Shown in pieces: positions 852-63,163 of a stretch of DNA of 64,000 nt (its first letter is position 1; the number at the start of each line of letters is the position of its first letter). Both the position numbers and the translations under genes were made by a program. The notes under the pieces were generated by a model, which had not been told where the DNA came from, did no database searches, and worked only from the letters and a program-made list of their open reading frames with translations. The DNA is from Octopus vulgaris (taxonomy: Eukaryota), in the NCBI GenBank assembly GCA_951406725.2, contig OX597835.1, positions 11,656,001 to 11,720,000 on the forward strand. The letters run 5' to 3'.

Positions 852-1538
852 GCCTCCTTCCTTCAAACGGGAAGGAAGAGCTATTTTCATCATCTTTGTG
901 GCTATGACGAAAGAATGTATCTGGTGGACGCGTCTGAAAAGATTGGAGACAAACACTTTCCCTCTCTGGTCAACCTCTTCAAGTACCACTTGAAAGGGAA
1001 AGTGAGAGTAGAGAGGCAAGTTTTGTCTAGCGAATGTTTAAAAAAAGATGGGTGAATGTAGCAAGGATGGCACGTATGAATGACGAAGCCACCTTGAGCA
1101 TAGTCCTATGAACCCAGAAATTGAAAACAGAGGGTTACCCACTTGCAAACAAATGTGGTAACATATAACAATATTGACCAAGGTTACCGTGGTCTTTTTC
1201 ATAGGCTTTTCTTCCCACGGATAAACCTTACTTGCTCTCTCCTTTACACCATACATCATAACACTGTGATACACGATCCCTATTGATCGTTTTTTTCCTC
1301 TTCCCCTTTTTTTCCCCCTTTTCCTTCTTTTTTCATTTCTCTTTCCTTTTGTTCCTTTTCCTTTTCCTCTTTTTTTAATTTTTTATTTTTCTTATTTTTT
1401 TCCCCTTTTACGATCCCTTTTGATCGAAAACCTACGCCACATTTTTTTTATCTTTTGTTTTTTCATGCACCAAAAGAAAAGCTCTACCTTGTAATTTGTC
1501 CCATCTGTGTGCAGCCCTGTGTGGCCAATAAAGAAACT
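852..1538 (+). mobile_element. 5'-truncated, degenerate Tx1-like LINE 3' end (ORF2 C-terminus plus 3'UTR)
   Basis: Translates to SLVNLFKYHLKGKVRVERQVLS...WVNVARMARMN, which aligns with GLINFFKFHLKRKMRLERKVLS...WVNCARLACIN of ORF 57083-57598. It ends CAGCCCTGTGTGGCCAATAAAGAAA, like the full-length copy (CAGCCCTTGTGGCCAATAAAAAAG). Confidence 0.9.
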
Positions 1539-2765: not shown

Positions 2766-3151
2766 GGAGGCGCAATGGCCCAGTGGTTAGGGTAGTGAAC
2801 TCACGGTCATAAGATCGCGGTTTCGATTCTCACACCGGGCGTTGTGAGTGTCTATTGAGAAAAAACACTCAAAGCTCTACGTGGCTCCGGCAGGGGATGG
2901 CGGCGGCGGACCCTGCTGTACCCTTTCACCACAACTTTCTCTCACTCTTTCTTCCTGTTTCTGTTGTACCTGCATTTCAAAGGGGCCAGCCTCGTCACAC
3001 TCTGTGTCACGCTGAGTTTTCTCGAGAACTACATTAAGGGCACAAGTGTCTGCGGAGTGCTCAGCCACTTGCACGTTAATTTCACGAGCAGGCTGTTCCG
3101 TTGATCCGATCCATTGGAACCTTCGTCGTCGCAACCGACGGAGTGCCGTAG
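2766..3151 (+). mobile_element. tRNA-derived SINE, family A
   Basis: A-box-like TGGCCCAGTGG and B-box-like GGTTTCGATTC. TSD ATACAAGTACG at 2756-2766 and 3152-3162. Homologous copies at 27636 and 39917. Confidence 0.92.
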
Positions 3152-6785: not shown

Positions 6786-6833
<48 letters not shown>

Positions 6834-6834
6834 A

Positions 6835-7228
6835 TTTTCTACTCTAGGCACAAGGCCCAACATTTGGGGGGAGGGGGCAGTCCATTAGATCAACCCAGTA
6901 CACAACTGGTACTTAATTCATCGACCAGGAAAGGATGAAAGGAAAGTTGACCTCGGTGGAATTTGAACTCACAACCTAACGACAGACGAAATACCTATTT
7001 CTTTACTACCCACAAGGGGCTAAATACAGAAGGGACAAACAAGGACAGACAAACGGATTAAGTCGATTTTATCGACCCCAGTGCGTAACTGGTACCTATT
7101 TAATCGACCCCGAAGGGATGAAAAGCAAAGTTGACCTCGGCGGAATTTGAACTCAGAACGTATCGGCAGACGAAATACTGTTAAGCTTTTCGCCCGGCGT
7201 GCTAACGTTTCGGCCAGCTCGCCGCCTT
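6835..7228 (-). mobile_element. SINE family B dimer: a young-tail full copy (6996-7228) joined to a headless old-tail copy (6835-6995)
   Basis: The core ATCGACC..GAA.GGATGAAA...AAGTTGACCTCGG occurs twice. The junction GAAATACC|TATTTCTTT is identical to the junction in the 26-27 kb array. Confidence 0.88.
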
Positions 7229-7460: not shown

Positions 7461-7986
7461 TGTCTTTCTCCATTTCTTTCTAATCTGAAACTATTATGTT
7501 TGGTAGCTATTAATCTTTCCCGCTCTCTTTCATGATCACGAAGAAGGAATGTTTCCCGCATATTTTGTTTCCTCTCCCTGTCACTCTCTCTCTCACACAC
7601 CCAAACACTCTCTCGCCTTCTCAGCTTCTCTCCCAATTCTCTCCCTCTCTCTTTCTCTCTCTTACACACACACACACACACATCCTGTTTCTCTTTCACA
7701 CAAACATATCGTCTCAAGCAGTAAGGGTCAATAACGCGACCCACGAAAAAGAGAACAGACCCCCAATAAGCATAACATAACGAGGCCAGACATTAACGAA
7801 TGTCAACGATACTCTGATAAAAGAGGAAACAGACTCTTAAGTCAATGTCGCCAATCGATATTAAAGAATAAAAGAATAAACAAATGAAGGAACAAAGGAA
7901 TATATATATACGTCTATTCGAGAGAGAAGGATAACAACCGCTACAGTAAACACTAGTGGAAAAGAGCCAGATTAAAATAATAATAA

Positions 7987-8214
7987 TCCTTTCTACTTTA
8001 GGCACAAGGCCTGGAATTTGATAGGAGGGGACTAGTCCAGTACATCGACCCCAGTGCTCAGCTTGTACTTATTTTATCGACCCCTTCCCCCCCCCCCGAA
8101 AGCATGAAAGGCAAAGTCGACCTCAGCGGAATTTGAATTCAGAACGTAAAGACTGCCGAAGCTCTGCTAAGCATTTCATCCGGCGTGCTAACGAGTTTGC
8201 CAGCTCGCCACCTT
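7987..8214 (-). mobile_element. SINE family B, old-tail subfamily
   Basis: Same head and core as other B copies. The sense tail GGCCTTGTGCCTAAAGTAGAAAGG is followed by (ATT)n. Confidence 0.85.
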
Positions 8215-8284
8215 AATGATGATAATGATGCTGATGATGATGCTGATGGTGGTGGTGGTGGTGATGATGATGATGATGATGATG

Positions 8285-8454: not shown

Positions 8455-9013
8455 TGCCCTGATGCAGTACTAAGCAATGGCTCTCATGGCTTCTGATCTT
8501 AACTAATTGAAAGTTTTATCATGTACATTGTTTTGTCGTGGTATAAAATATGGGCAACATCAAATATTCTGCTCAATACCACAGATTTCCTTGTCAGAGT
8601 TGTTTGACCATAACCAGTTGAGCATGTCCCTTAATGGCTGATGATATATGCGTCTCAGATCACGAGCAGAAGTAGTTGGGGGAGCATCATAGTCGTGAGT
8701 TGAAAGGAATTCTTAAAGGGTTGGATAATTCACATTTGGAAACATGTTTTGTACATCATCTTTAAACGACCTTTATTCAGGGACCTTTTGAGCAGGATGG
8801 GCTACTCGACTTGAAGAAAATTCTAACTGGGCCCTATCAGCAAGGTCATGTGCTGTTTATTTTGATATGAGATCCCCATGTCACCTGCATATGACTGTGA
8901 TGCATGTGCCTGGTGTACCCTTCTCAGACGGGTAGTCATGATGGTTATACTGGGCTTCATATATTTTAACCAAGTGTCACTTTGACGGCATGCACTGCTC
9001 TCTCTCTCTCTCT
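8455..9013. mobile_element. Unclassified ~555-bp non-coding interspersed repeat 'E' within AAT/AAC repeats
   Basis: Reverse-complement homolog of 15911-16466 over its whole length. No ORF, no TIR and no obvious tRNA head. Confidence 0.8.
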
Positions 9014-9085
9014 CCATAATGATGATAACAACAACAACAACAATAATAACAACAACAACAACAATAATGATAATAATAATAATAA

Positions 9086-10338
9086 CTCAAATGCAATACA
9101 AAATAGAAAACAATTTAAAACTGTAAACTATGTAAGAAAGGAAATTAAACAAGAACTAAAACCAGGTCTCACTGAATTAAATGAAATTATTTACACAGCT
9201 GCTGAGACAATCGAAGCCGGTTGTACGTCTCTGAAAAAACAAAAAAATACAAACCTAAGAAGAATTCCAAACGGGGAAAGTAAAATTGAAAAAGAGATTG
9301 GAATAATGGGAGGTGAAATATCAATATTGAATGAACTGATCTGTGGAAACAATGGAAATACCAGAAAGGAAGAAAGATGAAGAGAAAACATAGATTCTCA
9401 CCAAGAGAAGAACTGCTTTCAGCAAAAGAAACACTGTAACGAAAGACCCAAGCAAAATCTCAAAGAATACGAAGATATGAGAAGAGAAATAAATTTTAGA
9501 AGCAAAATAAGCTGTTCACATCCAATGCGAAAAGATTCTACAGAGAAATGGGGGAGGAGAAAATAACCATTGAAGACCCCCACTCCTATGGAAGAAGTTG
9601 AGAACGTTTGGACAAAGATCTGGAGTAATGAAAAGATTTACAATGAATATACAGACTGGATTAGATGTACGGAAGGATCCTACCAAAACTTACCAGAACA
9701 AGCATGGGAAGACATTACAATAGCAGACCTAAGAATGACTCTCATGAAGGCTCATAAGTGGAAATCTCCTGGTGATGATAGGGTGCCAGATTTCTAGCTA
9801 CCACAGCTCCCGTGCGTGCATGAAAAGTTAGTCCAGTTATTCAATGAAATCATGAGAGATCCTACGAAAACACCTGATTGGTCAGCAAGGGGTATTACTT
9901 ACCTACTCCCGAAGAATAATGAAACCAAATCTCTCGACCCATAACATGTCGGCCCATAACATGTCTATCTACCACGTATAAAATTTTAACTTCCATCTTC
10001 GTGGAGAAATCTCACACAAATTTATGGAACAGAACGGTATTTTCCCCATTGAACAGAAAGGACGGGGGTCATATAGATGCAAAGGCCAACTCTTGATCAA
10101 TCGCATGGCCCTTGAGAACTGTCATAACAAAGGCAGAAATCTCAGTTCTGCATGGATTGATTATAAATTAGGCCTTCGACCGCATACCGAATTCATAGAT
10201 CTTGCAGTCACTGGATATCTTCAAAATTTCTCCTCTGATTTGAAACTTCCTGAAGAATAATATATCAATGTGGAGCAACTATAGCACTCAAATGGAATAC
10301 TGACCACAAAAAATATTAATATCAACTGCGGCATTTCG
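9086..10338 (+). pseudogene. Degenerate R4/Dong-like non-LTR retrotransposon, N-terminal and RT fragment
   Basis: Frameshifted RT motifs HKWKSPGDDRVPDF, RPITCLSTTYKILTSI, EQKG..GSYRCKGQLLIN, NLSSAWIDY and INCGI. Starts directly after an (AAT/AAC)n run. Confidence 0.8.
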
Positions 10339-10876
10339 CTCTCTGTCTTTAGCCATGAGCTCCGTACCACTGATCGGTGTGCTTCTGGTCTACATAAGCT
10401 TATTTGCTACGGGCCACATATTTCTCAGGCAGATGTTTTTGTTCCTACCTATCAACCAATTGTTCAAACGCATTTTACTTTGCTGTTGATCTCACATTCT
10501 TTGCAACTACAGTTGCTGCACTTCCATTATGCTGTTCAACCTGGGTATTATGCATCAGCTCGCTTGAAAATATTTTGCTCTCCTTCATAACAGAATGAAG
10601 CTTCTTACGTCATCCATGGTTTTCTACGAGCTGTGGCATCCAGTCGCTAGGTGTTTCAAGACATTTTGCCTGCCCAGTTGAGGTGGCTTTGCAGAAGATT
10701 TCAAATTTGGGTCAAGCGTCGACCTCCTTGAGATCTGGGCAGATAAAGACGATCTGTATCTGCCTTTGGGTGGTGCATCTTATCGCAAGTCAGCAGCTCA
10801 CGTATTTTCCTGTCAATTTTCATTATTTCGCTCATATTCCGGTTCAACACATTGGAGCTGTAAATAACAACCAGAT
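10335..10876 (-). pseudogene. Inverted R4/Dong-like post-RT fragment
   Basis: The minus strand encodes KIDRKIRELLTCDKMHHPKADTDRLYLPRSQGGRRL, matching the HPK..DRLY.PR..GGRGL signature of RLE-type elements. Confidence 0.8.
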
Positions 10877-11095
10877 AGGTAGATATATAGATAGATAGGT
10901 AGATAGATAGATAGATCGATAGATAGATAGATAGATCGATAGACATACAAACAGATAGACAGATAAAAGACAGACAGACAGATAGATAGATTGATAGATA
11001 TACAGACAGGCAGATAGACAGACTGACATTCATACATACATACATATAGACAGACATACAGACAGACAGACAGACAGACAGACAGATAGACAGAC

Positions 11096-11181
<86 letters not shown>

Positions 11182-11193
11182 TTAGTTTGATAA

Positions 11194-11224
<31 letters not shown>

Positions 11225-11226
11225 TG

Positions 11227-11303
<77 letters not shown>
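10877..11303. repeat. (GATA)n/(GACA)n microsatellite
   Basis: Direct reading. Confidence 0.95.
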
Positions 11304-11371
11304 GCAAACATACAATCACATACATTTATGTGAAGTCTGAAATTTGAAAAAGATGACAATAATTTCTGGCA

Positions 11372-11585
11372 TGTGACCAAGGACAAGAATATTGGGGTAG
11401 GAACAGTCGATCGTATCGACTTCCAGTACCCGGTTGAAGCGTCAATTGATCGATTTTGGAAGGATTTGAAGGAAAGTTAATCCCAGCAGGATTTGAACTC
11501 TGGAATGTAAAGAGATAAAAAAAAACAAAGAATTTTCTTTTTTTTCAATCAGTCGTTTTAACGATTCTTCCAATCTACAACTCAT
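11372..11585 (-). mobile_element. Highly diverged SINE family B copy
   Basis: Residual GTCGATCGTATCGACTTCCAGT and GGATTTGAACTC motifs in the family B order. Confidence 0.5.
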
Positions 11586-24288: not shown

Positions 24289-25046
24289 CACCACCACCAC
24301 CACCAGCAACAACAACAACAAAACAACAGCAACAACAACACCACCACCAACAACAACACCACCACCACCAAAAAGAACAACAACAGCAGCAGTGGCAGCG
24401 ACATTAGGAGCATTATAATCTCCACCACTCTATACCACCACCACCACCGCCACCACCGCCACCGTCGCCGCTACCGCCGCCGTCGCAGCCACTACAACGT
24501 ACATCAAAGTCAAAACTCATCTCCGAGTCTTTTGCAATCTTTTTGATAATACTTTAATCTAATCTACACCGCACTGAATGGCTGCGTCGATGGTTTACGA
24601 TCTACTTGCATAGAACTTGATGTTTGTAGTGATTATTGGTATTCTGTGAACTTTCAATTTCCATTTTGCTTTTAGTCGTTTTTCACACTTCTTATACAGC
24701 TTATTGCATTAGTATAAGCACTTGAAAACAGCATTAGATTAAAGTAATAATGTGTATAATATTCATAACGCATATATCCTTGTAGAACGACACTAGTGCA
24801 AATACTTTCTCTCAAAGAAAACTTCTCAAAGAGATTTGTGTATTAATAAACACAAAAGTTTTTCAGAAGGTCATGAGCAAATCATCAAACACCAGTGTTT
24901 CGGTCTGATTTAGTCCCCTAAGTGACGAATACACCGGAAATTTTTAGTGAAGTCGAAAACGTATTTCTTACGGTATAGAAACATGTAAACAAAGCATTTA
25001 CTGATTTGCGCAAACGCTGCTGGGCTAAATTAAGCAAGAAGCAAAT

Positions 25047-25222
25047 CTTGGCACAAGGCCACCAATTTCGAACTAGTTCGTAAGTCGGTTACATCGACCA
25101 TCTGGTACTTATTTTATCAACCCCAACAGGATGAAATGATAAGTTGATCTCGGTGGAATATGAACTCAGAACGTTAAGGACGGACGAAATGCTGCTAAAC
25201 GTTTTGTCCGGCATGCAAACGC
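25047..25222 (-). mobile_element. SINE family B, old-tail diverged copy
   Basis: GGCACAAGGCC tail, ACATCGACC, GGATGAAA core and CCGCCTT head end. Confidence 0.75.
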
Positions 25223-25366
25223 TTCTTTCAGCTCTCCGCCTTAAATTAGATAATGCATGTAATTTTGTCCCATGCAATAACAATTCTGGCAATGCACAAT
25301 ATAGGGCTAAAATCAAATTAATATACAAATTGGAAACTGCATTAAATTAAGATAAAGTTGTACATA

Positions 25367-25780: not shown

Positions 25781-25986
25781 ATAGCATTTCCAACACGAAT
25801 ATAGAAGAGTAGTACGGCTCTATCTGTTAGAATTTTGTCTCAGTGATAAAACACCTAGAACTCTCTAGAAGGTCATTGGTAAATCACCAGATTCTGTGAT
25901 TCGCCGACGGCATTCCGAACGAGTCTCTCTGGGGCAAATTACTGCACGTTTTTATATGAATTATAAACACATCATTATTGAATAAC

Positions 25987-27503
25987 TATTTCTTTATTAC
26001 CCACAAGGGGCTAAACATAGAGGGGACAAACAAGGACAGACATAGTATTAAGTCGATTACATCGACCCCAGTGCGTAACTCGTGCTTAATTTATCGACCC
26101 CGAAAGGATGGAAGGCAAAGTCGACCTCGACGGAATTTGAACCCACAACGTAACGGCAGATGAAATACCTATTTCTTTATTACCCACAAGGGGCTAAACA
26201 TAGAGGGGACAAACAATGACAGACATAGGTATTAAGTCGATTACATCGACCCCAGTGCGTAACTGGTACTTAATTTATCGACCCCGAAAGAATGAAAGGC
26301 AAAGTCGACCTCGACGGAATTTGAACTCACAACGTAACGGCAGATAAAATACCTATTTCTTTATTACCCACAAGGGGCTAAACATAGAGGGGACAAACAA
26401 GGACAGATATAGGTATTAAGTCGATTACATCGACTCCAGTGCGTGACTCGTGCTTAATTTATCGACCCCGAAAGGATGGAAGGCAAAGTCGACCTCGACG
26501 GAATTTGAACTCACAACGTAACGGCAGATGAAATACCTATTTCTTTATTACCCACAAGGGGCTAAATATAGAGGGGAAAACAAGGACAGACATAGGTATT
26601 AAGTCGATTACATCGACCCCAGTGCGTAACTGGTACTTAATTTATCGACCCCGAAAGAATGAAAGGCAAAGTCCACCTCGACGGAATTTGAACTCACAAC
26701 GTAACGGCAGATGAAATACCTATTTCTTTATTACCCACAAGGGGCTAAACATAGAGGGGACAAACAAGGACAGACATAGGTATTAAGTCGATTACATCGA
26801 CCCCAGTGCGTAACTGGTACTTAATTTATCGACCCCGAAAGGATGAAAGGCAAAGTCGACCTCGACGGAATTTGAACTCACAACGTAACGGCAGATGAAA
26901 TACCTATTTCTTTATTACCCACAAGGGGCTAAACACAGAGGGGACAAACAAGGACAGATATAGGTATTAAGTCGATGACATCGACCCCAGTGCGTAACTG
27001 GTACTTAATTTATCGACCCCGAAAGAATGAAAGGCAAAGTCTACCTCGACGGAATTTGAACTCACAACGTAACGGCAGATGAAATACCTATTTCTTTATT
27101 ACCCACAAGGGGCTAAACATAGAGGGGACTAATAAAGACAGACATAGGTATTAAGTCGATTACATCGACCCCAGTGCGTAACTGGTACTTAATTTATCGA
27201 CTCCGAAAGAATGAAAGGCAAAGTCGACCTCGACGGAATTTGAACTCACAACGTAACGGCAGATGAAATACCTATTTCTTTATTACCCACAAGGGGCTAA
27301 ACACAGAGGGGACAAACAAGGACAGACATAGGTATTAAGTCGATTACATCGACCCCAGTGCGTAACTGGTACTTAATTTATCGACCCCGAAAGGATGAAA
27401 GGCAAAGTCGACCTCGACGGAATTTGAACTCACAACGTAGCGGCAGATGAAATACCGCTAGGTATTTGGACCGGCGTGTTAACGTTTCTGCCAGGTCACC
27501 GTT
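25987..27503 (-). repeat. Tandem array of 8 SINE-B-derived units (period 183-184 bp); only the last unit carries the head
   Basis: Unit starts at 25987, 26170, 26354, 26538, 26721, 26905, 27089 and 27273. Flanked by the direct repeat ATTATTGAATAAC at 25974-25986 and 27504-27516. Confidence 0.95.
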
Positions 27504-27635
27504 ATTATTGAATAACGTTTACATCACTTTACACCATGACTATACTTTTGTTCATTCTTGTTCTTTTAATTCGTCTTTCATCACTTCTTCTTTCCATGTT
27601 GAAATCATTTCAATCGTATCATCTATTTGCGTTTG

Positions 27636-28024
27636 TGGAGGCGCAATGGCCCAGTGGTTAGGGCAGCGGACTCGCGGTCGTAGGATCGCGGTTTCGATTC
27701 CAAGACCGGGTTTTGTGAGTGTTTATTGAGCGAAAACACCTAAAAGCTCCACGAGGCTCCGGCAGGGGATGGTGGTAATCCCTGCTGTACTCTTTCGCCA
27801 CAACTTTCTCTCACTCTTACTTCCTGTTTCTGTTGTACCTGTATTTCAAAGGGCCGGCCTTGTCACTCTCTGTGTTACGCTGAATATCCCCGAGAACTAC
27901 GTTAAGGGTACACGTGTCTGTGGAGTGCTCAGCCACTTACACGTTAATTTCACGAGCAGGCTGTTCCGTTGATCGGGTCAACCGGAACCCTCATCGTCGT
28001 AATCGACGGAGTGCTTCCATCACC
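27636..28024 (+). mobile_element. tRNA-derived SINE, family A
   Basis: Homolog of 2766-3151. TSD ATTTGCGTTTG at 27625-27635 and 28025-28035. Confidence 0.93.
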
Positions 28025-30017: not shown

Positions 30018-30415
30018 GGAAATAGAAGAGATAGAAAGGAAAACAAGATATAAATAATGCTTCTCCAAAAGAAAACGTGCCAAGCGAGAACGGAAAAATG
30101 AAAGGCGGCAGTAAAGACGTAGAGCAAAGTGTAAATGTAAGAAATATTCTCAGCAAATAAAGCAGAAATGATAGGAAGAGTTATAGCACAAGAATACGAT
30201 GATGACCAAAGAAGACATAGGGAGGATGTGATGCCGATATATTAGAGAAGATCAGGATCGATCAAGCACCCTCCCAATCTCAAGGACGTCGGTCGACGCA
30301 AGCTCAAATTTGAAACCGAAAAGATAGATTCGGTCCTTGGGCTATTCCAGACGAGAAATATAACTGAAATATAACAAGATTATTTAGGCTGCAGCGATGG
30401 TTTCTGCGGAGAGTG

Positions 30416-30828
30416 TTACTCTTTTACTCTTTACTCTTTTACTCTTTTACTTGTTTCAGTCATTTGACTGCGGCCATGCTGGAGCACCGCCTTCAGTCGA
30501 GCAAATCGATCCCGGGACTTATTCTTTTTGTAAGCCCAGTACTTATTCCATCGGTCTCTTTTGCCGAACCGCTAAGTGACGGGGACGGACATAAACACAC
30601 CAGCATCGGTTGTCAAGCAATGCTAGGGGGACAAACACAGACACACAAACACACACATATATATATACATATATACGATAGGCTTCTTTCAGTTTCCATC
30701 TACCAAATCCACTCACAAGGCATTGGTCGGCCCGGGGCTATAGCAGTAGACACTTGCCCAAGATGCCGCGCAGTGGGACTGAACCCGGAACCATGTGGTT
30801 GGTTAGCAAGCTACTTACCACACAGCCA
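30416..30828 (-). mobile_element. SINE family C
   Basis: Reverse-complement homolog of 25367-25780, with a (TACTCTTT)n tail. Confidence 0.92.
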
Positions 30829-30987
30829 GGATACAAAATAAAAGATCAAAGAGAACGCAGAGAACCATACTGGCGGGCGGAGAGGAATTTGTGAGAATCA
30901 AAGTTAAAAAGACATTTAGGACAAGATGATAGATTGAGAAGAGGGGAATTGCCGGACGAATGCATAAGAATAATGCTGTAAAGAACA

Positions 30988-31501
30988 TCTATATATATAA
31001 AACTGTAGTTGTGTGAGTGTCTGTCCCCTTCGATTTAGATTCCTAACTACTCCCACAATTTGCGGTGCAGTTTAACCAAATTCGGGTATCTTATAGTCGT
31101 GATTCATATCGAGCCCGTCTGGGTATTAGCGCGCGTCTACGATGAGTCTACGATTTTTAAAATAATTTAACATCAATTTTTATTCCATTTTAATGCATAT
31201 TTTTTCGTGTGTCGATGGCGGGGGAGTTGGCGACCACGCTCACATCTGCACCTGTGTTGCTTCTCCCCCTTCTTCCCTCCCTCGTGAAGCTGTGGGGAAG
31301 GGAGTGTAAGGAAATCAACGTCGTAAAGCGTTGTCAAGGAGACCAGCGTTCTTTTAGAACAACGACTTCATGGCTTGAAGACACCAAAACAGAAATGGCT
31401 AAGAAAGCCCGAGTTGGCATCTATAACGGAAGTAACTCTCTAAAAATGCTTATATAGTTATTTCCCTTACAAACCCGAGCAACGCCGGGCGATACTGCTA
31501 G
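30988..31501 (+). mobile_element. Non-autonomous Helitron
   Basis: A|TC...CTAG|T termini and no TSD. Subterminal hairpin CCCGAGCAACGCCGGG lies ~12 nt before the end. Confidence 0.85.
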
Positions 31502-31647
31502 TATAGAATAAGAGATAAAGGTTTTGATGTGATGTTAGAAGAATTGAAATAAAGAGTAGTAATAATCAAAGTAAAACTGGAAAGATATGACAACAGAAAA
31601 AGACAGTACAGGCAAAAAAGATTGTTTAAAGCAAATCAGAAGAAACC

Positions 31648-31870
31648 TATTTCTTTATTACCCACAAGGGGCTAAACACAGAGGGGACAAACAAGGACAG
31701 GCATAGGTATTAAGTGGATTACACCGACCCCAGTGCGTAACTGGTACTTAATTTATCGACCCCGAAAGGATGAAAGGCAAAGTCGACCTCGGCGGAATTT
31801 GAACTCAGAACGTAGCGGAAGACGAAATATCGCTTAGCATTTCGCCCGGCGTGCTAACGTTTCTGCCAGC
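31648..31870 (-). mobile_element. SINE family B, young-tail copy
   Basis: 21-bp TSD TAAAGCAAATCAGAAGAAACC at 31627-31647 and 31871-31891. Confidence 0.95.
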
Positions 31871-32385
31871 TAAAGCAAATCAGAAGAAACCGTTTCAGGA
31901 ATTAGATGGGCAAATACACGTAACAAGGGTACCAGATGCAGAGGATGCATAAATGGTCTGGCTTCAACAGTGCACGTATTCAATAAGGATATCGGGATGG
32001 AATTTGGGATTAAAAAGCTTGGCATGCTTAACATACAAAGGCCAACTAATGTCATCTGATAGTGAAGGACTATCCAATGGTGAGAAAATCAAGTATGTTG
32101 AGACGGATGGATATAAGTATCAGGGTATTTATTTTGGGGGTATGACAAAAGTCAAGGAGAGTGAGATAAAGGAAAGCTTTGAACTTACATCAGAAGAAAC
32201 AAATTAATTACAGAAATTTGGACTCAATGGAAAGAATAAGAGCAGGGCAGTGAATACAGGGGCTGTTTTCTGAAAGGGATACGGTGCAGGTGGTGTTAAG
32301 TAAACAAAGAACGGGATTGAAGAAATGAATAGAAAAACCGGGAAAGTGATGACAGTGAACAAATCCTAAAATCGATATCGATAGG

Positions 32386-32800
32386 CTAGATGTGGTTTTG
32401 TGATCTGAAAAGACCAAGAAAATGATCTTGATTGAGCTTACAGTCCCATGGGAAGTGGTGTGATCAGGACGACGAATTGAAGAGTGCCAAGTATGAGAGG
32501 ATTGCAGGGAGAAAGGATTGCATTTACGGCTTTTCCTAGTCGAGGCTGGCTGCAGGGGGTTCCTTGTTCACTCGGCATGGAGGATGCTTACAGCCATTGA
32601 AATGAGTGGAAAGGAGATGAGGGTGGCTGTGTACAGGATGGGTGAGGTAGCTGAAAGAGTCTCTGCTTGGTTATGTAGCAAGAACGAGGAGTTAAGCTGG
32701 AAACCAAGAAGTGATGCGGTGCAGTCATTTGCCCACCTCTGCTGATCCACCAACGGAAGGGTATTACGGTTCAGGGTTGAAACACCCGCTGAATACTCAA
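32386..32800 (+). pseudogene. Hero-like RLE retrotransposon 3' fragment
   Basis: DVVL*SEKTKKMILIELTVPWE and VEAGCRGF...EVAERVSAWL resemble Hero-clade endonuclease motifs (IELTVPWE, VEVGCRGF, AE.AS.W). Confidence 0.7.
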
Positions 32801-32804
32801 TACC

Positions 32805-33038
32805 TATTTCTTTATTACCCACAAGGGGCTAAACATAGAGAAACAAACAAGGACAGACATAGGTATTAAGTCGATTACATCGACCCCAGTGCGTAACTGG
32901 TACTTAATTTATCGACCCCGAAAGGATGAAAGGCAAAGTTGACCTCGGCGGAATTTGAACTCACAACGTAACGGCAGACGAAATACCGCGAAGCATTTCG
33001 CCCGGCGTGCTAACGTTTCTGCCTGCTCGCCGCCTTCC
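32805..33038 (-). mobile_element. SINE family B, young-tail full-length copy
   Basis: TSD AATACTCAATACC at 32792-32804 and 33039-33051. Sense head AGGCGGCGAGCAGGCAGAAACG with B-box GAGTTCAAATTCC. The central GCCTTTCATCCTTTCGGGGTCGATAAATTAAGTACCAG resembles the MetaSINE domain as I recall it. Confidence 0.95.
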
Positions 33039-33267
33039 AATACTCAATACCGTCTGTTGAAATCAGTTCCTCCAGGCTAAAGTTCCTTTCACTTTGGTGA
33101 GTGGAAGAAGCACCTTCTTTTACGTGTTATTAACATATACATATGTATATGTATGTATGTATTTATGTACGTATGTGTTTGCGCGTATGTGTGTGTGTAC
33201 GTATGTATGTAGTTTATGTGTCTGTATGAATGTAATGAATGTATGTATACATGTATGCACGCATATA

Positions 33268-39242: not shown

Positions 39243-39916
39243 TGTAGTTTTAGAATATGTCTGAAGTCTTGAGATTGAGAAGAAAGTATCCGTGTTTTGT
39301 TAGGCTGTCCAGTTTTAATTAAGGGAGAGCATCAAATGGTAAGACAGCTGGGAATTCCAGAGATAAGAAATTATGCTCGTATTATTAAAATTGTTCAAAG
39401 TGGTGATGTAAATGTGTGCATGAACAAAGCCACCAAATATAAAAATACTAAGAACCACAACTCTGTATACAGTTTAAAATCGTACCCTGCTAAGGCATTG
39501 CTCACAACCCACAGAACACTCATACTATTTAATCGCATAGCCCACACATATTGTGTGCGCAACGTACACAGCACATGCTTTTATAATGAACGCCCGTTTA
39601 AAATAAAACCCCCAACGCACTTAATATATATTCCGCAGATTCACCAGCCGAGACTATAAGACTTGATAAATATGCCCATACAAAATATACTTCAAACAAA
39701 CACTGCCTGACATGATAATGTATATATCACACTGAGGTACGTACCCTGTGTGAGAGCCACGCATAGCTTGCTCACAAGGCGCATTCTCAACACATCTATT
39801 ACTGTTATATATAATACAGAAAAATAAAATATTTTCTTCACAAGCACCATCAGACGCCGCAATATAATACAGAAATATAGAACCGTACAAACAGCAGCCG
39901 AAGCTATAATAATAGT

Positions 39917-40299
39917 GGAAGCACTCCGTCGGTTACGACGACGAGGGTTCCGGTTGATCCGAATCAACGGAACAGCCTGCTCGTGAAATTAACGTGTAAG
40001 TGGCTGAGCACTCCACAGACACGTGTACCCTTAACGTAGTTCTCGGGGATATTCAGCGTGACACAGAGAGTGACAAGGCCGGCACTTTGAAATACAGGTA
40101 CAACAGAAACAGGAAGTAAGAGTGAGAGAAAGTTGTGGTGAAAGAGTACGGCAGGGATCACCCCCATCCCTTGCCGGAGCCTCGTGGAGCTTTAGGTGTT
40201 TTCGCTCAATAAACACTCACAACGCCCGGTCTGGGAATCGAAACCGCGATCCTACGACCGCGAGTCCGCTGCCCTAACCACTGGGCCATTGCGCCTCCA
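39917..40299 (-). mobile_element. tRNA-derived SINE, family A
   Basis: Reverse-complement homolog of the other A copies. TSD CTATAATAATAGT at 39904-39916 and 40300-40312. Confidence 0.93.
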
Positions 40300-40404
40300 C
40301 TATAATAATAGTAATAATAACAACAACAACAATAACAGCAACAATAATAATAATAATAAAAGATGGGTTACAGTAAATATTGTTGGTGGGTGTGGTTTTG
40401 AAAT

Positions 40405-48724: not shown

Positions 48725-49640
48725 TTGTAGTTTAAACTCAGAGCTGAGGCCATGCTGGAGCACCGACGTTTTGCTACACTGGCAGCAAATATGTGGCACG
48801 TGGTGAAGAATGGAGTTTCATGTAGCCACCCTCATTTGCACCTCTTGCCGTGAGGTAGGTTCATCCAGGACACTCGACAGGAAGAGGCTCAGCCTCGATT
48901 TAAAAACACCTACATCTACTTAGTGCAGGTTTCACGGGCTCTTTGGGAGAATATTAAAAAGCTGTGGGCCCCTGAAACCCAGGCTGTTGCAGTAACTGGT
49001 CTTGAAGCGCGATGGCATTGCTGGGATTTTTGGCACTGTGCAGTGTTGACTCGTTCTGGCATTGGTGTAGCTGTCAGTGCCAAAATTTGGTACAATTCCT
49101 TCCAGGATCTTCCAGATGTATATTACTGCATAGCTCTCCCACCTTCGCTCCAGGGAGTAGAGTCTTAACTGTTTCAGCCTTTCCCAGTAAGTGAGCTGTT
49201 GGAAAGAGATGATCTTTATGAAGCTTCACTGAATTGCTTCAAGGTCCGCTGTTAATTTTACATTTTTGGGTAACCATAGCTGGGAGCAGTAATCCAGGCG
49301 GCTGAGGACGAATGTCCTCCAGAGGTCCATCAAGGATTCCTTATCTCTGGTTCTGAATGTTCTCTGGATCCATGCAGCCATTCGTCTGCACTTTGTCGCC
49401 ATCCTGGTAATGTGCACTTGGAAAAACGTATCGTCACTCATGTCGATACCCAGGTCCCTCATTGCTTTAGGCTCTGGGATTGTAATTCCCTGTGGACCAG
49501 TGGACCCTGTAAGTTTAATATTCAGTTTTGGACGCTGGTAGCGCAGGGCTTGGAATTTTTCAGCATTGAACCGCATATTATTATCCTTAGGCCATCTGAA
49601 AATTGAGTCCAACTCCTGCTGCAGATGTGCAAACGTCGCT
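48725..49640 (-). pseudogene. 5'-truncated CR1/L2/Jockey-group LINE (RT C-terminus plus 3' end)
   Basis: LQQELDSIFRWPKDNNMRFNAEKF, RDLGI, IQRTFRTRD, LSRLDYCSQLW and LEAIQ are typical of the CR1-group RT thumb region. Confidence 0.88.
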
Positions 49641-50319
49641 GGAGTTCTGTATTTTCTGTGAGACATCCGTATCGTCTGCGTAGCTAGCAAGGGCGGCCAT
49701 CCGGGCGTGTTCATTATTCTTATATTATTATCTCACCCTTGCAATTATAGCCCCATGGAGTTCATCGAGATCGAGGCTGTTATAATGGCTATGTTTTGTG
49801 TTTGCGGGCACGGGCGCTTTAATGATTGCATCCAATAAGCGGTTCTTCTGTGAATTATTTCAAATTAAGTTGAGTAGGTTCCATTTAGTAATATTGGTGG
49901 AATGTCAAATAAGGCATGTATGCATTGAATTTTGCGGACCTGTTGTTAGGTAAATAAGTAAATAAGATTTTTAATATGCGTTGTGGCAGCTATCAGTTAT
50001 AAATTGTGATGAAAACTAGATTCAGGATGGTGAGTGACGATAGAAATGTTTTACAAATGACAACATACGGAAATAAAGAATTGGTATAAAATAAAATAAT
50101 GCATAATGGATAGCAGAAATATAAAGCAAAATGAGAATAAATATAAAAATATCAGAACGTAAAAACGTGAATACGAACATACATGATAATACCTGATAGA
50201 CGGCTATATGAGTAAATGTATTAAAAATCTTGTATATTAAAAAGAATAATAATAAATATTTAAAATATATATTAAAAATATGTGTATAAAATAAATATTA
50301 CATATATATATGTATAAAA

Positions 50320-52732: not shown

Positions 52733-52756
52733 AGAACAGCCACAGCATTAATACTA

Positions 52757-53195
52757 ATCCTTTCTATTATAGGTCCAAAGATTAGTTGATTACATCGATA
52801 CCAGTGCGCAAGCAGCATTTATTTCATCGACCCCGAAAGGAGGGTGAAATGCAACGCCGATGTTAGTGGATCTTGAACTCAAAACGTAAAGATGGATGAA
52901 TTACCAATTTCATTACTACCCACAAGGGGCTAAACACAGAGAGGACAAACAAGGACAAACACACGGGTTAAGTCGATTATATCGACCCCAGTGTTTCACT
53001 GGTACTTAATTTATCGACCCCGAAAGGATGAAAGGCAAAGTCGACCTCGGCGGAATTTGAACCCAGAACGTAACGGCAGGCGAAATACGGCTACGCATTT
53101 CGTCCAGCGTGCTAACGTTTCTGCCAGCTCGCCGCCTTGACGGATGAATTACCGTTAAGCATTTTCTCCGGTGTGGCAACGAGTCAGCTAACTTG
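52757..53195 (-). mobile_element. Old SINE B (52757-52905 plus 53139-53195) with a young SINE B (52906-53138) nested inside it
   Basis: TSD GAYGGATGAATTACC at 52891-52905 and 53139-53153; the old head continues after the TSD. Confidence 0.9.
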
Positions 53196-56799: not shown

Positions 56800-57082
56800 C
56801 AATTCTTTTTTATTGGCCACAAGGGCTGACACGCATGATTACATAAAGGGACAGGACAGGACGAAAGGTTACAAAGGGTTTTGTCCGTTTGTTAAAAAAT
56901 CCGTGTAAAAAAAAACTTTAAAACAATGATTATTAAAACAATGAAAAACTCCCAAAAGGGGGAGACGTCTCGAAATGTTCCCGGTGGAAAAAACCCTACA
57001 AAAGCCAACGGGAGCCTGGTCAAAAAAAGGGGGTGTAGAGAGTCCCCTTTCTTCTCCTTTTACATTACCTTTTTCTTTGAAA

Positions 57083-60000
57083 TCACAGGCGAAACCTGAG
57101 AACTGGTCCATTTATACAGGCCAGTCTCGCACAATTCACCCACCTTTCATAAAACTTGCTATCGGACAGCACTTTCCTCTCTAACCTCATCTTCCTTTTC
57201 AAGTGAAACTTGAAAAAGTTGATGAGGCCTTGACCAAAGAGGAAAGTGTCTGTCTTTAGCCCTTTCAAACGAGTCCACCACACGACCTCTTTCGCCACAG
57301 CCACTAGGCACAAGAAAACGGCCTCGCCCTCCTTGTTAAAGGAGGTCGGCGGGGCAATCTTCACTATGGATTCGGCCGATAGTCGGATCCGTCCTACACG
57401 TGACAGTAGCTGTTCGACATAAACCCATATTTCAGCAATACTCGGGCACTGGACGAGTGCGTGCAGAACGGTTTCGTCGTCCTGGCAACACCTCGGGCAG
57501 GCCCGGCTGACGGCACTTCCGTGCCGGTAGAGTTTATCTCGAACAGGCAGAGCCCCTCGGTAGCACTGCCAGGCGAGAGACCTCTGGAAATTATCCATCG
57601 GCCCCGGCCCGAAAGTCCTCCCGAACAGACCTGCTCAGTTCGTCGTCTTCAACGCCTAGAGTTTCCCCGAGAACGTCGTCGCATTTTTCCTCCACTAACC
57701 CTCTATAGAACGCTAGAGTGGAGCTGTAACCGACCGCATTGCCCGCCTGGTGGAGGGCGGAGAGGGCTTGACGGCACTCGAGGTGCCAAGCGCCCTTTCT
57801 CGGTCTACGTTTGATCCAGGTCTGCAGCTCCGTCAAAGAGACGAGCTGCGGAAAATCGCGTCTGACAAAAGACGACCACACCTGTTCACCGTCTAGGAAG
57901 CGCTTGAGATGCCGCAGCCTGAGCGCATGTCTGCGCAACAGCAACCACGGCATTCCAAGGCCTCCGTTCAGCGGTCGTTGACAGCAGATGGATCGCCTGA
58001 CCAGTGGCACCTGACCCTTCCACAAAAAGTCGAAGAGCAGACGTACCAGCTTGGCCAACCAGCGGTCGGGACAAGGGACGACGGTCAAGCGGTAATAGAT
58101 GACGGATGCGATGTACGCATTCGCCACCTCCGCTCGACCTTTCAGGGACAGCTTCCTCTCGGCCCATTTCTGGGTGAGACGTGCCACCCTGCTCGTCACC
58201 TCTTCCCAGTTCTTATCCACCTGGAGGTCCGGACCGAACCAGACCCCGAGCAGTTTAACGGGTCCGTCTGTCCAGCGCCCTACGACGCTGTTGGACGGCA
58301 TGGGCTTGCCTCTCCAGGTGCCCAGTTGCAAGCCCACAGACTTTTCCGCGTTAATCTTTGCCCCTGTCACCGCTTCGTACTGGTTTAGCGTCTCGCCAAT
58401 CAGGCCAATGTGCCTGTGGCTCGACACCACCACGGTGACGTCGTCGGCATAAGCAGACACGCTGTTTCCGCCTCCTAGATCGCGCGGGATGCCCCTCAAA
58501 GCCTCCAACTTGCGCAGTAATGGCTCGAGAGTCAAAATGTACAAGAGGGAGGAGAGAGGGCATCCTTGGCGGACCGAACGCGAGATGTCGAACGGTTCCG
58601 AAAGGTGACCGTTCACCCGTATCACCGAGCAGATGTTGCTGTATAAAGCAGCGATCCACCCGCGGAAGACTGGACCGAAGCCGGCTGCCTTGAGGACAGC
58701 TGCCAGGTACCGATGGTCGACCCTATCGAAGGCTTTACTCTGATCCAAGTTGATCAAAGCCCCACCCGCGCCAGCGTCGTTACCCACCCTCTCTATGATG
58801 TAGCGCATGAGATGGAGGTTGTCGTGTATCGACCTGGTCGGCACGGCGCATGTCTGCGTCCCGCCGACCAGCTTGTCCACGACAAGCGCCAATCTCTTGG
58901 CTAGCACCTTGGCCAAAATCTTCAACTCTGCATTGAGCAGAGTGATGGGCCGGAAATTGCCTATAACGTCCCCCTTGTTTGGGTCCTTCTTTAGCAAAGC
59001 CACCACCCCTCGACAGACAAAAGCAGGAATTCTCCCGTTTTGCTGCCAGTTGCAGTAGACGTTTGCCAACAGGTCCGCAAACAAGTCTGGCATTGAAAAG
59101 TAAAGCTCGTAGGGCAGACCATCCAAACCCGGCGATCTACCTCTCGTGCAACTCTTCATCGCTTCCTGTACTTCCCAGGCAGATATCGGTCCTTCGCAGC
59201 ACTCTGCCTCGCTGTCCGAGAGTTGCGGCAGTCCGTCCAGGTACACACCGAAGTCTGTACCGTTGGTGTCCGTTCCACCGCTCGTCCCAAACAGTTGAGC
59301 AAAGTGCCGCTGAAGTACCGTACACATCTGCTTCGGTTGGGTAACCTCGCGCCCGTTCTGGTCCACCAAAGACCGAATGGTTGCTCTGTTGCCTCGCTTC
59401 GCCTCCGCCACGCGGGCCCATCGAGCGGCTCTAGTCCCCTCCCCGCTTAGCGAACGTGCCTTAGCTCTGACAACGCAGCCTTCGTGTTTGGCGTCGAAGT
59501 GTTGGTCGAGGGCCAACCTTGCCGCCAACACGTCGGTCGCGATGCCAGTGTCAAGAGCCTCGTCTAGTTTCTTAACTAAATCCCGCTCTCTCTTCCTACG
59601 TTCAATAGCTAGAGTCTTACTATACCTAATCGACTCTACTCTAATTGCTCTCTTGAGGGCAAACCACCAGTTGTTGTTGATGATTGCCCCCGTGAGCGCC
59701 CGCTTAACTAGTAAACTAATCCGGTCTCTGTAAGCTTTGCACGCCGTTAACGACGCGTTCAGCTTCCAGTAGCCGGGTCCCTGTCTATGTAGCCTATCTA
59801 AGTCGACCGTACAGATCACTAATTTGTGGTCCGTATATTCGACTAGGTGGAATTGTGGACACCCTACGCTGTCCTTATCCGCTGGCCTACAAAACACTCT
59901 ATCTAAGTACGATCTAGACGACCCGATGCGGTTTGTCCAAGTCCACATTGGCACATTCGGGTTGTCTAGTCGAAACCTGTCGGACAGCTGAAAGCGGCCG

Positions 60001-60518
60001 AGTAGGTTGGCGAGGCTCTTGCACCCTCCCCCTCTCCTAACAGACGCTCCCCTGCCCACCCGATCGAAACGTTCGTCTAAGACAGCGTTCCAATCCCCAA
60101 CTAGTACTAGAGTGCGTGACGTTCCCAGGAAAACTTCCAGACGTTTGAAATAATCCGACTGCCCTGCTCCTGTCGGAGCGTAGGCAGCCAGCAGTCTGAA
60201 AGCACCGCCGTCACTACCGTCCACGTCGAGGACCACCAACTTACCTTCCGGATCCAAGAAGACTGTCCTTATTTTCAGGTCCAGGCCCTTCCGAAACAAC
60301 ACCGCAGTACCACCACCGCCCGCTCCCGGCCGACACGGAGATAGAAATATCTCGTATCCGCCGAAAAGGGCTGCGAGTTCCTGCGGGTCGGAGAGCCTGG
60401 TTTCACTGATGGCTGCTACATCCACATCATGAAACCTCAGGTCGTTTAACAGGTGACCCTGTTTCCAAGGTGACCCGAGGCCTCTCACATTCAAGCAACC
60501 GATTCTAAGATTTGCCAT
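57083..60518 (-). CDS. ORF2: APE endonuclease, reverse transcriptase and C-terminal CCHC zinc finger, with one +1 frameshift near 57635 (~1144 aa if corrected)
   Basis: APE motifs CLNVRGL, ISET, YAP, GDWN, YLDR and TDH. RT motifs SPGLDG, FRPITLLN, KAFDRVDH, RQGCPLS and YADD. L1/Tx1-type GPGYWKLN and W..RKLS.KGR. CPRC-x8-H-x4-C lies in the downstream frame 57083-57598. Confidence 0.95.
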
Positions 60519-60556
60519 GTCTCAAAGTAGGGGGAAAAAAAGGGAGAAAAAAGGCT

Positions 60557-61363
60557 CTACTTACTGTTGTTGGTGGTGGGGGTGGCTCCCTTGTGCTTTT
60601 GCACGGGTGCTTCCACAATGTTTTTATAAAGTTTCTTCGAGAAACTTTTCCCTAGCGATCCCACATCGTTAGGGAATATTTGTTTGATTTCATCATATGA
60701 TTTTGCATTTATTTTTATTGTGAGAATGTGTGCTGGTGGTGTGTTTTGTGTTGGTATGATGAAATCGGTTATATTTGTACTAGTTTTGTTTTTTAAGTAC
60801 TCCACTAGTTTTTGGTTCTTTGTGTTTATTGATGTAATTGTGTCTGTGTGTGTTTGTGTGTGTGGCAGTGGCAGTAGTGGTGTCGAAAGTGTTGTTGTTG
60901 TTTGTTGTTGTGAGTGTGTGTTGTTGTTGTTGTTGTTGTTGATGTTGGGAAGCACTATTTGTTCGTGCTTCCCCTGTAAATCTTTTTGTTTCTTCCTCCT
61001 TTTCTTCTTTGGAGGCACTATACTCCATTCTCCTTTGTTGGAATCAGAGCTCGCACAATCCGAGATCTCTTCATCCGGCAAAGGAATGGTTGAGGGTCTG
61101 CTTCAGTAGCAGGACGAAAAGTTTCTGGTTCCACCGGTATCGGTGGTGCCGCTGCTCCTGTTACTGTTGATGTCGCTGCTGTCGACCTTCGAGGTACTGG
61201 TGTCGGTGTTGGTTTGGTGGTGGTTGTCGGTGTTGGTTTGGTGGTGGTTGTTGTTGTTGGAGGTGGTGTTGCTCGTCTTGGTGCTGGTGTTGGTGATGGT
61301 GTTGGTGGTGTGGCAGCCTTTGGTGTTTCTTGCTGTTTTTGTTGTTTCTGTTGTTGTTGCTTG

Positions 61364-61403
<40 letters not shown>

Positions 61404-62426
61404 GCTGCTGCCTCTTGCTGAAAGCCTCCATCCTCTTTTTGTGAATGGGACAGTCCCTCTTTAAGTGGCTTTCGCTGCTGCAGAGAAAGCATTTTGGCTT
61501 TCGCCCCTCCACAGCAACGTTTAGCCTAGTGCCGTCCGGCAAACTTACGAAATCAGGGACTTTACTTATATTCTCTTGCTGAATTTGCGCAAGAAGCAGC
61601 ACTCCCATCCCCAACCAGTTTTTCGCCCTCACTCTCCTGACATCTAGAATGGTGGTAGTGTCCTCTATATCATAGAGGACAGCTGCCACCAGCCATGACA
61701 TATTTAATTCAGGGGGGACGAGGTCGATTTTTATTTTTGTAACTCTTCGCCCGAGGTGGGTTGGAATTAGTAACAAATTCTCAGTTTGCAAGGGCGAAAT
61801 GGCGTTCGCCCTTGCCAGCTCCTCTGTTGGGAAGCGAACCTCCACGGTTCCAAAACGCTTCCCCTTGGTTACGTAGCTCTTTTGGGCCCAAATGGGCTTT
61901 AGAGCTATCTCCAACTGTTGGGGTGTGGCATTTGTTATTCTTTTTAGTTTTCTGTCGAAAACTTTGTAAATTATTGTTTGCTTGTTGGTGCTTTCAATCA
62001 CCTCTTGTGGAGTATTGAGGAAGATACCATTGCCATCCTTTCTTAACAATTCCTTCGCTCTTTTCACATCTTCTAGAGTTATTTTAACTTCCTCCGAAAT
62101 TTGCTTCGCAGCAGAAGCAAAATTGTTGGAAGTTTTTTCTTTTATCTCCGTGTCAATGTTTGTGATGATTTTTGTATTTGTTTTTTCTCCTCCTCCTTCC
62201 TTACCAAAGCATTGGGTGAAGGCAGAGGGGGAAAATCAAGAATTACGTCGAACGCGACGTCATGACTTGCATTTTCCTTTTGAACCGAGCGCGTGCTCTG
62301 CGGTTCGGAAGGAGAATCTTTGTTGCCTTTTAAGGCGTGAAGTGGGTGTTTTGTACGAGTTGTGCGTGTTTGCGGAGGGAGTGTATTTTGAAGGAAGGAA
62401 CAGCCAACTGTTCGCTTCATAGCCAT
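60557..62426 (-). CDS. ORF1: gag-like nucleic-acid-binding protein with CCHC knuckle, poly-Q and Pro/Thr tract; two frameshifts (~62150-62190 and ~61090)
   Basis: CFLCSSESHLKRDC knuckle in 61018-62067. The adjoining frames 62142-62426 (ATG start, DFPPLPSP) and 60557-61081 (W..VPPKKKRR) look like its N- and C-terminal parts, which is an inference. Confidence 0.8.
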
Positions 62427-62658
62427 GTTTTTTCTTGTTGTAATATTCAAAATGTTGAAAAATGTCAAATGTTCAAAATTTTCAAACGCAATTTCACCCC
62501 GAATGGGGCAAAATTTCGCCCAACCGACGAGCTCCGCAAGAAGCCGGTCGGTTTGGCTACAGAAATATTAAAAAATATTCAAACCTATTAATAGATTTCC
62601 AATGAAATTGGTGTCAAATTCACGGAGCTGATTCACGTACGTCTAACGGCGTCGGAAG

Positions 62659-63163
<505 letters not shown>

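Follow-up and report, generated by a model that had tools for sequence, protein, structure and literature searches.

SINE B copies in the window, by which we mean the whole 64,000-nucleotide stretch analysed here, share a landing motif: the nicked strand reads AMC^GT at all four insertions that are bounded by TSDs. Moreover, SINE B lands at one particular nucleotide in the head of its own family, which is a new observation. Judging from these sequences, we hold it somewhat more probable than the opposite that the landing preference stems from the endonuclease of an unseen L1/Tx1-like LINE subfamily, which would share the SINE B tail and is predicted to nick at RWWAMC^G(T).

The window has a GC content of 35%, and short tandem repeats account for 14,330 of its 64,000 bases. 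A BLAST search with one SINE copy as query matched 18 segments, 12 of which carry the tail that defines SINE B; the others represent SINE A, an older family with a B-like head and centre and a different or decayed tail. The 12 B tails are distributed over five loci, namely an eight-unit array and the copies B0, B1, B2 and B3, all of which lie on the minus strand. SINE B is about 233 bp long and is flanked by TSDs of 12-21 bp. It opens with a head starting with GGCGGCGAGCTGGCAGAAAC, continues through box-like motifs and a central domain, and closes with a tail whose last bases are CCCCTTGTGGGTAATAAAGAAATA. In agreement with the original prediction, poly(A) is absent and the tail end (AAAGAAATA, or AATGAAATT in B3) abuts the TSD directly. 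The A and B box-like motifs in the head, TGGCAGAAACGTTAG and GTTCAAATTCC, were picked by eye against the Pol III box consensus, and neither Rfam nor ARAGORN returned a tRNA match to SINE B. B1, B2 and B3 lack any run of four T. The contig depth of SINE B is very high in three organisms (public runs X2, X4 and X7).

A 32-39 bp central stretch of SINE B recurs in five unrelated metagenome loci (L001-L005), pointing to a putative, deeply conserved central domain in these SINE-like elements. The five loci themselves were rejected as SINE B copies and left out of the motif, as they represent other elements that have only the 32-39 bp in common with it. A search with a pattern built on the SINE B tail found nothing in collections of viral, metagenome and prokaryote sequences. 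The central-domain pattern, which matched the five metagenome loci, had no match in two collections.

We defined TSDs as the longest suffix of the left flank that recurs at the right end of the element, and found them at four of the five SINE B loci, with exact lengths of 13, 21, 13 and 12 bp. The right TSDs end at 27516, 31891, 33051 and 53153 and are followed by GTTT, GTTT, GTCT and GTTA. For a minus-strand SINE, the standard geometry of TPRT places the first nick on the plus strand at the right TSD ends, so that the bases after the caret fall outside the duplication. The array (25987-27501) consists of one head and eight bodies of 183-184 bp joined at an internal site; its TSD pair (25974-25986 and 27504-27516; 13 bp exact, 15 with one mismatch) implies a nick at GAATAAC^GTTT. 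B1 (31648-31871) is 5'-truncated by about 8 nt and has TSDs on the tail side at 31627-31647 and on the head side at 31871-31891 (21 bp exact, or 20 with the T at 31871 assigned to the SINE), which puts its nick at 31891^31892, AGAAACC^GTTT. B2 (32805-33036) is a full-length SINE B with a putative tRNA-type head, the conserved central domain and a LINE-like tail; it lies between 13-bp TSDs at 32792-32804 and 33039-33051, with an inferred nick at CAATACC^GTCT. B3 (52906-53138) sits at the internal site of an old SINE A, whose body (about 52740-52905) and head (about 53154-53190) flank it, and its TSDs (52894-52905 and 53142-53153; 12 bp exact, 15 with one mismatch) give AATTACC^GTTA. The TSD search thus reproduced, at all four loci, the empty sites that had been reconstructed beforehand, each ending as shown before the caret and continuing with GT. 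The fifth copy, B0 (6996-7228), is joined at the internal site to a SINE A body (6831-6995) and has one head and no TSD.

At B1, the empty site with one copy of the TSD is present in organism C: record 20 of run X7, one of 24 pieces listed from 528,571, joins 31482-31626 to 31871-32013. Over about 290 bases it shows 6 mismatched letters and 7 gap letters, and we read it as the orthologue on the grounds that these are far fewer differences than in paralogues of the host repeat (about 20 in 125). The flanks of B1 belong to a low-copy old repeat, with about 15-40 paralogous contigs at roughly 85% identity. B1 and B2 are 0.9 kb apart (window 31480-32790).

With four sites and a motif drawn after the data had been seen, every test of the motif is post hoc. 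Our chance model consisted of 400,000 draws of four sites from 95,272 non-microsatellite window positions on both strands. Invariance at +1 and +2 had p=3.8e-4 (2.8e-4 given C at -1), and the log-likelihood over -5 to +5 had p=5e-6 (4.5e-5 given C at -1). Upstream, positions -7 to -2 gave p=0.11 for invariance and p=0.008 for log-likelihood; downstream, the signal is weak past +4 and fades over +1 to +10 (p=0.08). One explanation would be chance combined with ascertainment, four sites looking alike once aligned with little real preference behind them. This reading could draw on the small post hoc sample, the loss of signal over +1 to +10, the misfit of a recurrent joint at 31864 described below and the position of one of the four sites, the B3 insertion point at 53153, within an old related SINE A. 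It conflicts with the frequency at which the model yields any common dinucleotide outside the TSD (p=4e-4), any common trinucleotide across the nick (p=1e-5) or a common dinucleotide at the three sites that lie outside any SINE (p=0.005), all post hoc, as well as with the fact that one nucleotide in SINE heads was used repeatedly. We consider it very improbable.

The landing preference is nevertheless a loose one. Including the four used sites, about 95,000 window positions contain 40 matches to RWWAMCGT, which thus describes a degenerate preference rather than a unique target; the earlier term 'sequence-specific' overstated what is a degenerate consensus like that of L1. An L1-type TTTT/AA target was rejected for SINE B. 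As a control, we sought TSDs at nine copies of other SINE families. All three SINE D copies have TSDs of 11-13 bp and none has C^GT, while no usable TSD was found at the four SINE C and two SINE A copies. The nick contexts of the SINE D copies (2766-3146, 27635-28019 and 39916-40300) are AATAG^TAAT, CAAAT^AGAT and TGTAT^AGTA, unlike those of SINE B.

The second feature of SINE B is the use of a site within its own family. In B2, this self-target site lies at 32987^32988 and reads GAAATACC^GC. The window contains nine self-site junctions, which correspond to at least 2-3 events. The clearest is B3, which entered 48 bases from the start of an old A head, has its own TSD and left the remaining host head in place. 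In B0, a B tail is joined to a second A body at the same head nucleotide as in B3, without a TSD. The other seven junctions belong to the array and are enclosed by a single TSD pair. Array units differ from each other at 2-11 bases (mean 6.6), as against 11.9 to B1 and B2, and they have two diagnostic bases in common as well as variants found in alternate units. On account of these common bases and alternate-unit variants, we count the seven junctions as one event and reject their treatment as independent events. The minority variants in alternate units of the 25987-27501 array suggest that it grew in two-unit steps. In most SINE heads the self-site reads ACC^GC, not ACC^GT. TTAAC is found in both heads at the A-copy junctions and GC in the other six; this contrast of a GT-type allele at the A-copy junctions with GC elsewhere has a Fisher p of 0.036, or 0.14 if B0 is taken as the sole new datum.

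Head-less 184-bp junctions could also result from template jumping within one round of reverse transcription, the amplification of a dimeric master copy or unequal recombination, with the dispersed preference still real. Such origins would account for an entire array within one TSD pair, whose units have diagnostic bases and alternate-unit variants in common, for the missing TSD of B0 and for the GC that most heads carry at the site; furthermore, SINE-derived arrays in squamates and bivalves are put down to recombination in the available parts of two studies (PMC10702118, PMC11481361). They do not account for the target-derived TSD and leftover host head of B3 at the exact self-site, and duplication of B monomers cannot make the joints of B tails to two diverged A bodies in B0 and B3. 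We give this explanation a substantial chance, short of even. It concerns the self-landing step alone and is compatible with the rest of the mechanism proposed below; whether the head-less junctions are targeted insertions we regard as about an even question.

Junctions of the same kind recur in the public runs. B-tail joints make up four of the 15 joints listed, out of 2,962, from runs X2, X4 and X7. The joint that takes the B tail 184 bases back, to the internal site, was present in at least 18, 21 and 13 contigs of X2, X4 and X7, and a joint 170 bases back, where A-type heads diverge, in at least 20, 34 and 22. We read the latter, which falls 14 bases short of the self-site, as the self-site in A-type heads. 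All of these contig counts are minimums, and contigs are not events, as an amplified dimer gives identical joints. The third joint that recurs runs from 31864 to 31648 (at least 13, 17 and 8 contigs in X2, X4 and X7); at face value it reads TTTCT^GC and misfits the motif. Aligner overshoot from TAAC^GT at 31858, with TTTCT on both sides, was considered as its source, but would predict 31647 as the other end; the joint may represent a further dimer junction or else a second self-site close to TAAC^GT. Loose ends at 31829 run into the B tail in consensus (588 in X2 and 531 in X7, with an agreement of about 0.5); these figures derive from 24 rows listed of 3,501, taken as consensus, none of which lies at the tail end. 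Among the 15 joints listed of 2,962, no clean joint fell on the head AMC^GT sites 31811 and 31858, and no B-tail joint into the copy of SINE C at 30428-30835 recurred; as the four AMC^G sites of that copy all lack GT, the latter result carries no information. A joint from 30791 in this SINE C copy to 31659 was found in single contigs in two of the three runs. In the raw run X22, 69 of 12.9 million reads aligned, too few to be informative.

The choice of these sites might alternatively lie mainly with the RNA. Transcripts of dimers or arrays would run into GGUAUU and anneal to a target ending in AATACC-3', so that a loose endonuclease, perhaps one favouring only C^G, would suffice. Consistent with such pairing, the first six TSD bases match the SINE-internal GGTATT at 5, 4, 6 and 5 of 6 positions, and terminators are absent 21-577 bp downstream of the five B tails. 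The self-site that is used is the best match to GGTATT, rather than one of the GT-bearing sites (among the 15 joints listed of 2,962), which is what pairing predicts and which speaks against the endonuclease reading. In RTE retroposons, the first TSD base has been linked to the 3' repeat of the RNA, as described in the accessible sections of PMC6007223. Pairing leaves unexplained, however, the T at +2 in all four sites, which lies outside the TSD and where the SINE consensus has C; and at the array site, the contiguous match to GGTATT comprises only one base. As a GT outside the TSD cannot stem from pairing of the RNA 3' end, it favours the endonuclease. We therefore regard RNA pairing as unlikely to be the main chooser of the site and as a possible helper to the choice by the endonuclease. 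The original prediction allowed that the final C of the motif could partly reflect pairing with the RNA; given a match at 4-6 of the six bases, pairing with read-through RNA might account for more than this C.

The proposed link to L1/Tx1-like LINEs comes from the SINE B tail. It aligns with the 3' fragment of such a LINE at 852-1537 (plus strand), its best match, with a local score of 57, and with a near full-length element at 56801-62659 (minus strand) with a score of 36; in both cases the best of 2,000 shuffles scored 32 and none reached the observed value. Of the 14 occurrences of the tail motif in the window, where 0.02 are expected, 12 are in B tails and two in LINE ends. A hairpin with a CTTGT loop is present in SINE B, three of the five SINE A copies and the long LINE, with stems that differ in sequence yet pair: CG, CG, CG and GT in B; CG, GC and GC plus GT, AT or TA in the three A copies; and CG, CG and GC in the long LINE. 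The 852-1537 fragment has a variant hairpin loop, the stem is not kept in two of the five A copies, and the covariation term of RNAalifold was 0 for six tails, with the A copies left out. SINE A (7983-8215, 6831-6995, 25040-25243 and 52740-52905) combines a different tail with the CTTGT loop and a compensated stem. Two of its copies end in GGATTA(T/G)TATT, as does the LINE in (ATT)n; SINE A may thus be the partner of an (ATT)n-targeting LINE subfamily, which would amount to tail swapping between sister SINEs.

As originally noted, both LINEs lie in microsatellites, the long element in (ATT)n and the fragment in (TCTA)n. ORF2 of the long LINE contains APE, RT and zf-RVT domains (Pfam PF03372, PF00078 and PF13966), which agrees with the Tx1-clade layout of an N-terminal APE, an L1-like RT and a C-terminal zinc finger; its APE domain has the catalytic motifs aligned with those of L1, and its best solved relative is human L1 ORF2p (E 2e-51). 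An ORF1 with RNA-binding domains and a CCHC knuckle is expected of the Tx1 clade. In ORF1 of this element, zf-CCHC scored E 0.054, below the cut-off, and the look-alikes in the Atlas are of CCHC and ZCCHC3 type (0.90-0.93). The element retains an open EN-RT frame of 974 aa; ORF1 carries frameshifts and Gln/Thr/Pro repeats, and ORF2 is frameshifted close to its end (about 57600). Its closest relative is 73% identical and the next 44%; the sole homologue with a Tx1 name, P0043, is 33% identical, and exact matching of four homologues yielded no informative names. A quick RT tree retained 74 of 89 rows, those with fewer than 250 aligned RT residues being dropped and reference L1/Tx1 elements not being among the rows; it placed the long LINE in a supported clade of 32 unnamed rows, and P0043 outside it in an unresolved fork. 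A search with the LINE ORF2 yielded no distinct loci in viral contigs.

Over short C-terminal segments, the 852-1537 fragment and the long LINE have 46-67% protein identity, which assigns the fragment to a different subfamily. Two LINE subfamilies with a B-like tail thus occupy different microsatellites, and targets differ within the LINE family. Neither window LINE was retained as the direct partner of SINE B, as both are flanked by microsatellites without AMC^GT, and the window contains no LINE with an AMC^GT flank. Four decayed fragments (8970-9380, 10701-11476, 30030-30420 and 49226-49732) we take to resemble R4/Dong-like LINEs, beside AAT repeats, or CR1-like ones; the two that were searched contained no Pfam domains. 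For the claim that SINE B owes its specificity to a Tx1-like partner, these results cut both ways: the motif with GT outside the TSD and the tail common to L1/Tx1-like LINEs bear it out, whereas the endonuclease as sole cause is called into question by the GGTATT matches and the common self-junction at ACC^GC.

These observations are compatible with the following mechanism. Pol III would transcribe SINE B RNA from the minus strand, and ORF2p of the partner would bind its 3' hairpin, of which the CTTGT loop and compensated stems are observed. In standard TPRT geometry, the APE would then nick 5'-..AMC^GT on the plus strand, the 3' C would prime reverse transcription, and a second nick 13-21 bp away would yield the TSD. 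The near-match in the SINE head, GAAATACC^GC (^GT in some copies), would make the family its own target, with a landing there seen in B3. Pairing of the incoming head with the resident head might then add one 184-bp body without a TSD, as may have happened in B0. Dimers formed in this way would seed arrays that subsequently grow locally, and their read-through RNA may add 4-6 bases that pair with the nicked strand. A bolder version, which we rate as doubtful and below even the pairing explanation, is that SINE B carries the target of its partner in its own Pol III head and breeds on itself, with read-through GGUAUU RNA acting as a guide. The SINE itself would in that case encode part of the target choice and reinforce it, and retrotransposition, not recombination, would be the seed of SINE-derived satellites.

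SINE B is not a new class of element, and the family may already be named. SINEs with tails of L1/Tx1-clade LINEs are few, and target preference of SINEs by way of Tx1 has been described mainly for SINEU. A very abundant young SINE whose motif is centred on CpG would provide thousands of natural sites at which endonuclease choice can be parted from RNA-DNA pairing. It would also show one conserved RNA hairpin serving LINE subfamilies with different targets, and would offer a path from targeted insertion to SINE-derived satellites. Our literature search, which covered few subscription journals, found no paper on target preference of cephalopod SINEs, nor one on a tRNA-SINE whose tail is shared with Tx1. 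L1-Tx1 is listed among recently active families by Bonar (2026; PMC13282606), the available parts of which contain no target analysis.

The closest known system is that of the crocodilian SINEU-1, -2 and -3, whose target preference was inferred to come from their partner Tx1-Mar (Kojima, 2015; PMC4494074, here and below as far as its accessible text goes). Their target is the DNA transposon Mariner-N4_AMi, in which 90%, 23% and 13% of copies are found. SINEU and SINE B are alike in TSD length (16 bp in SINEU-3) and in tandem insertions at the target, and the genomes with SINEU have other Tx1 groups in microsatellites (PMC4494074), where the L1/Tx1-like LINEs here lie as well. In contrast, the SINEU head derives from snRNA (PMC4494074) and that of SINE B is putatively tRNA-type; SINEU targets one transposon, whereas SINE B uses a short dispersed motif in unrelated flanks; SINEU tandems sandwich a TSD, whereas the SINE B self-site gives head-less 184-bp units; and SINE B, unlike SINEU, has a tail visibly common with LINEs. 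Kojima regards a family as target-specific if one sequence type makes up more than 20% of its flanks (PMC4494074); in the window, two of five SINE B loci lie in A heads and all four TSD-bounded insertions have the motif, which are too few for this criterion. Target-specific Tx1 families include Kibi in (TC)n, Koshi in (TTC)n, Keno in U2 and Tx1L in Tx1D (PMC4494074). Kibi and Koshi resemble the window LINEs as APE-type elements in microsatellites, while all four families are autonomous with narrow targets (PMC4494074) and the window LINEs are each a single copy of putative clade.

Tail sharing with the L1 clade is known from ZmSINE2/3 with LINE1-1_ZM and SINEX-3_CR with L1-1_CR, only three SINEs with L1-clade tails having been found as of 2013 in the available part of that survey (Ohshima, 2013; PMC3747384). 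As in SINE B, these pairs have a common 3' end and a compensated stem-loop, read there as stringent recognition; unlike the SINE B case, Table 1 of the survey names no Tx1 partner and no mollusc SINE (PMC3747384). Finally, the accessible sections on squamate sSat describe tandems of partial SINEs with leading and trailing monomers, much like the SINE B array (PMC10702118). The squamate arrays are ascribed to duplication at the DNA level (PMC10702118), whereas the unit boundary in SINE B coincides with the site of a TSD-bearing insertion.
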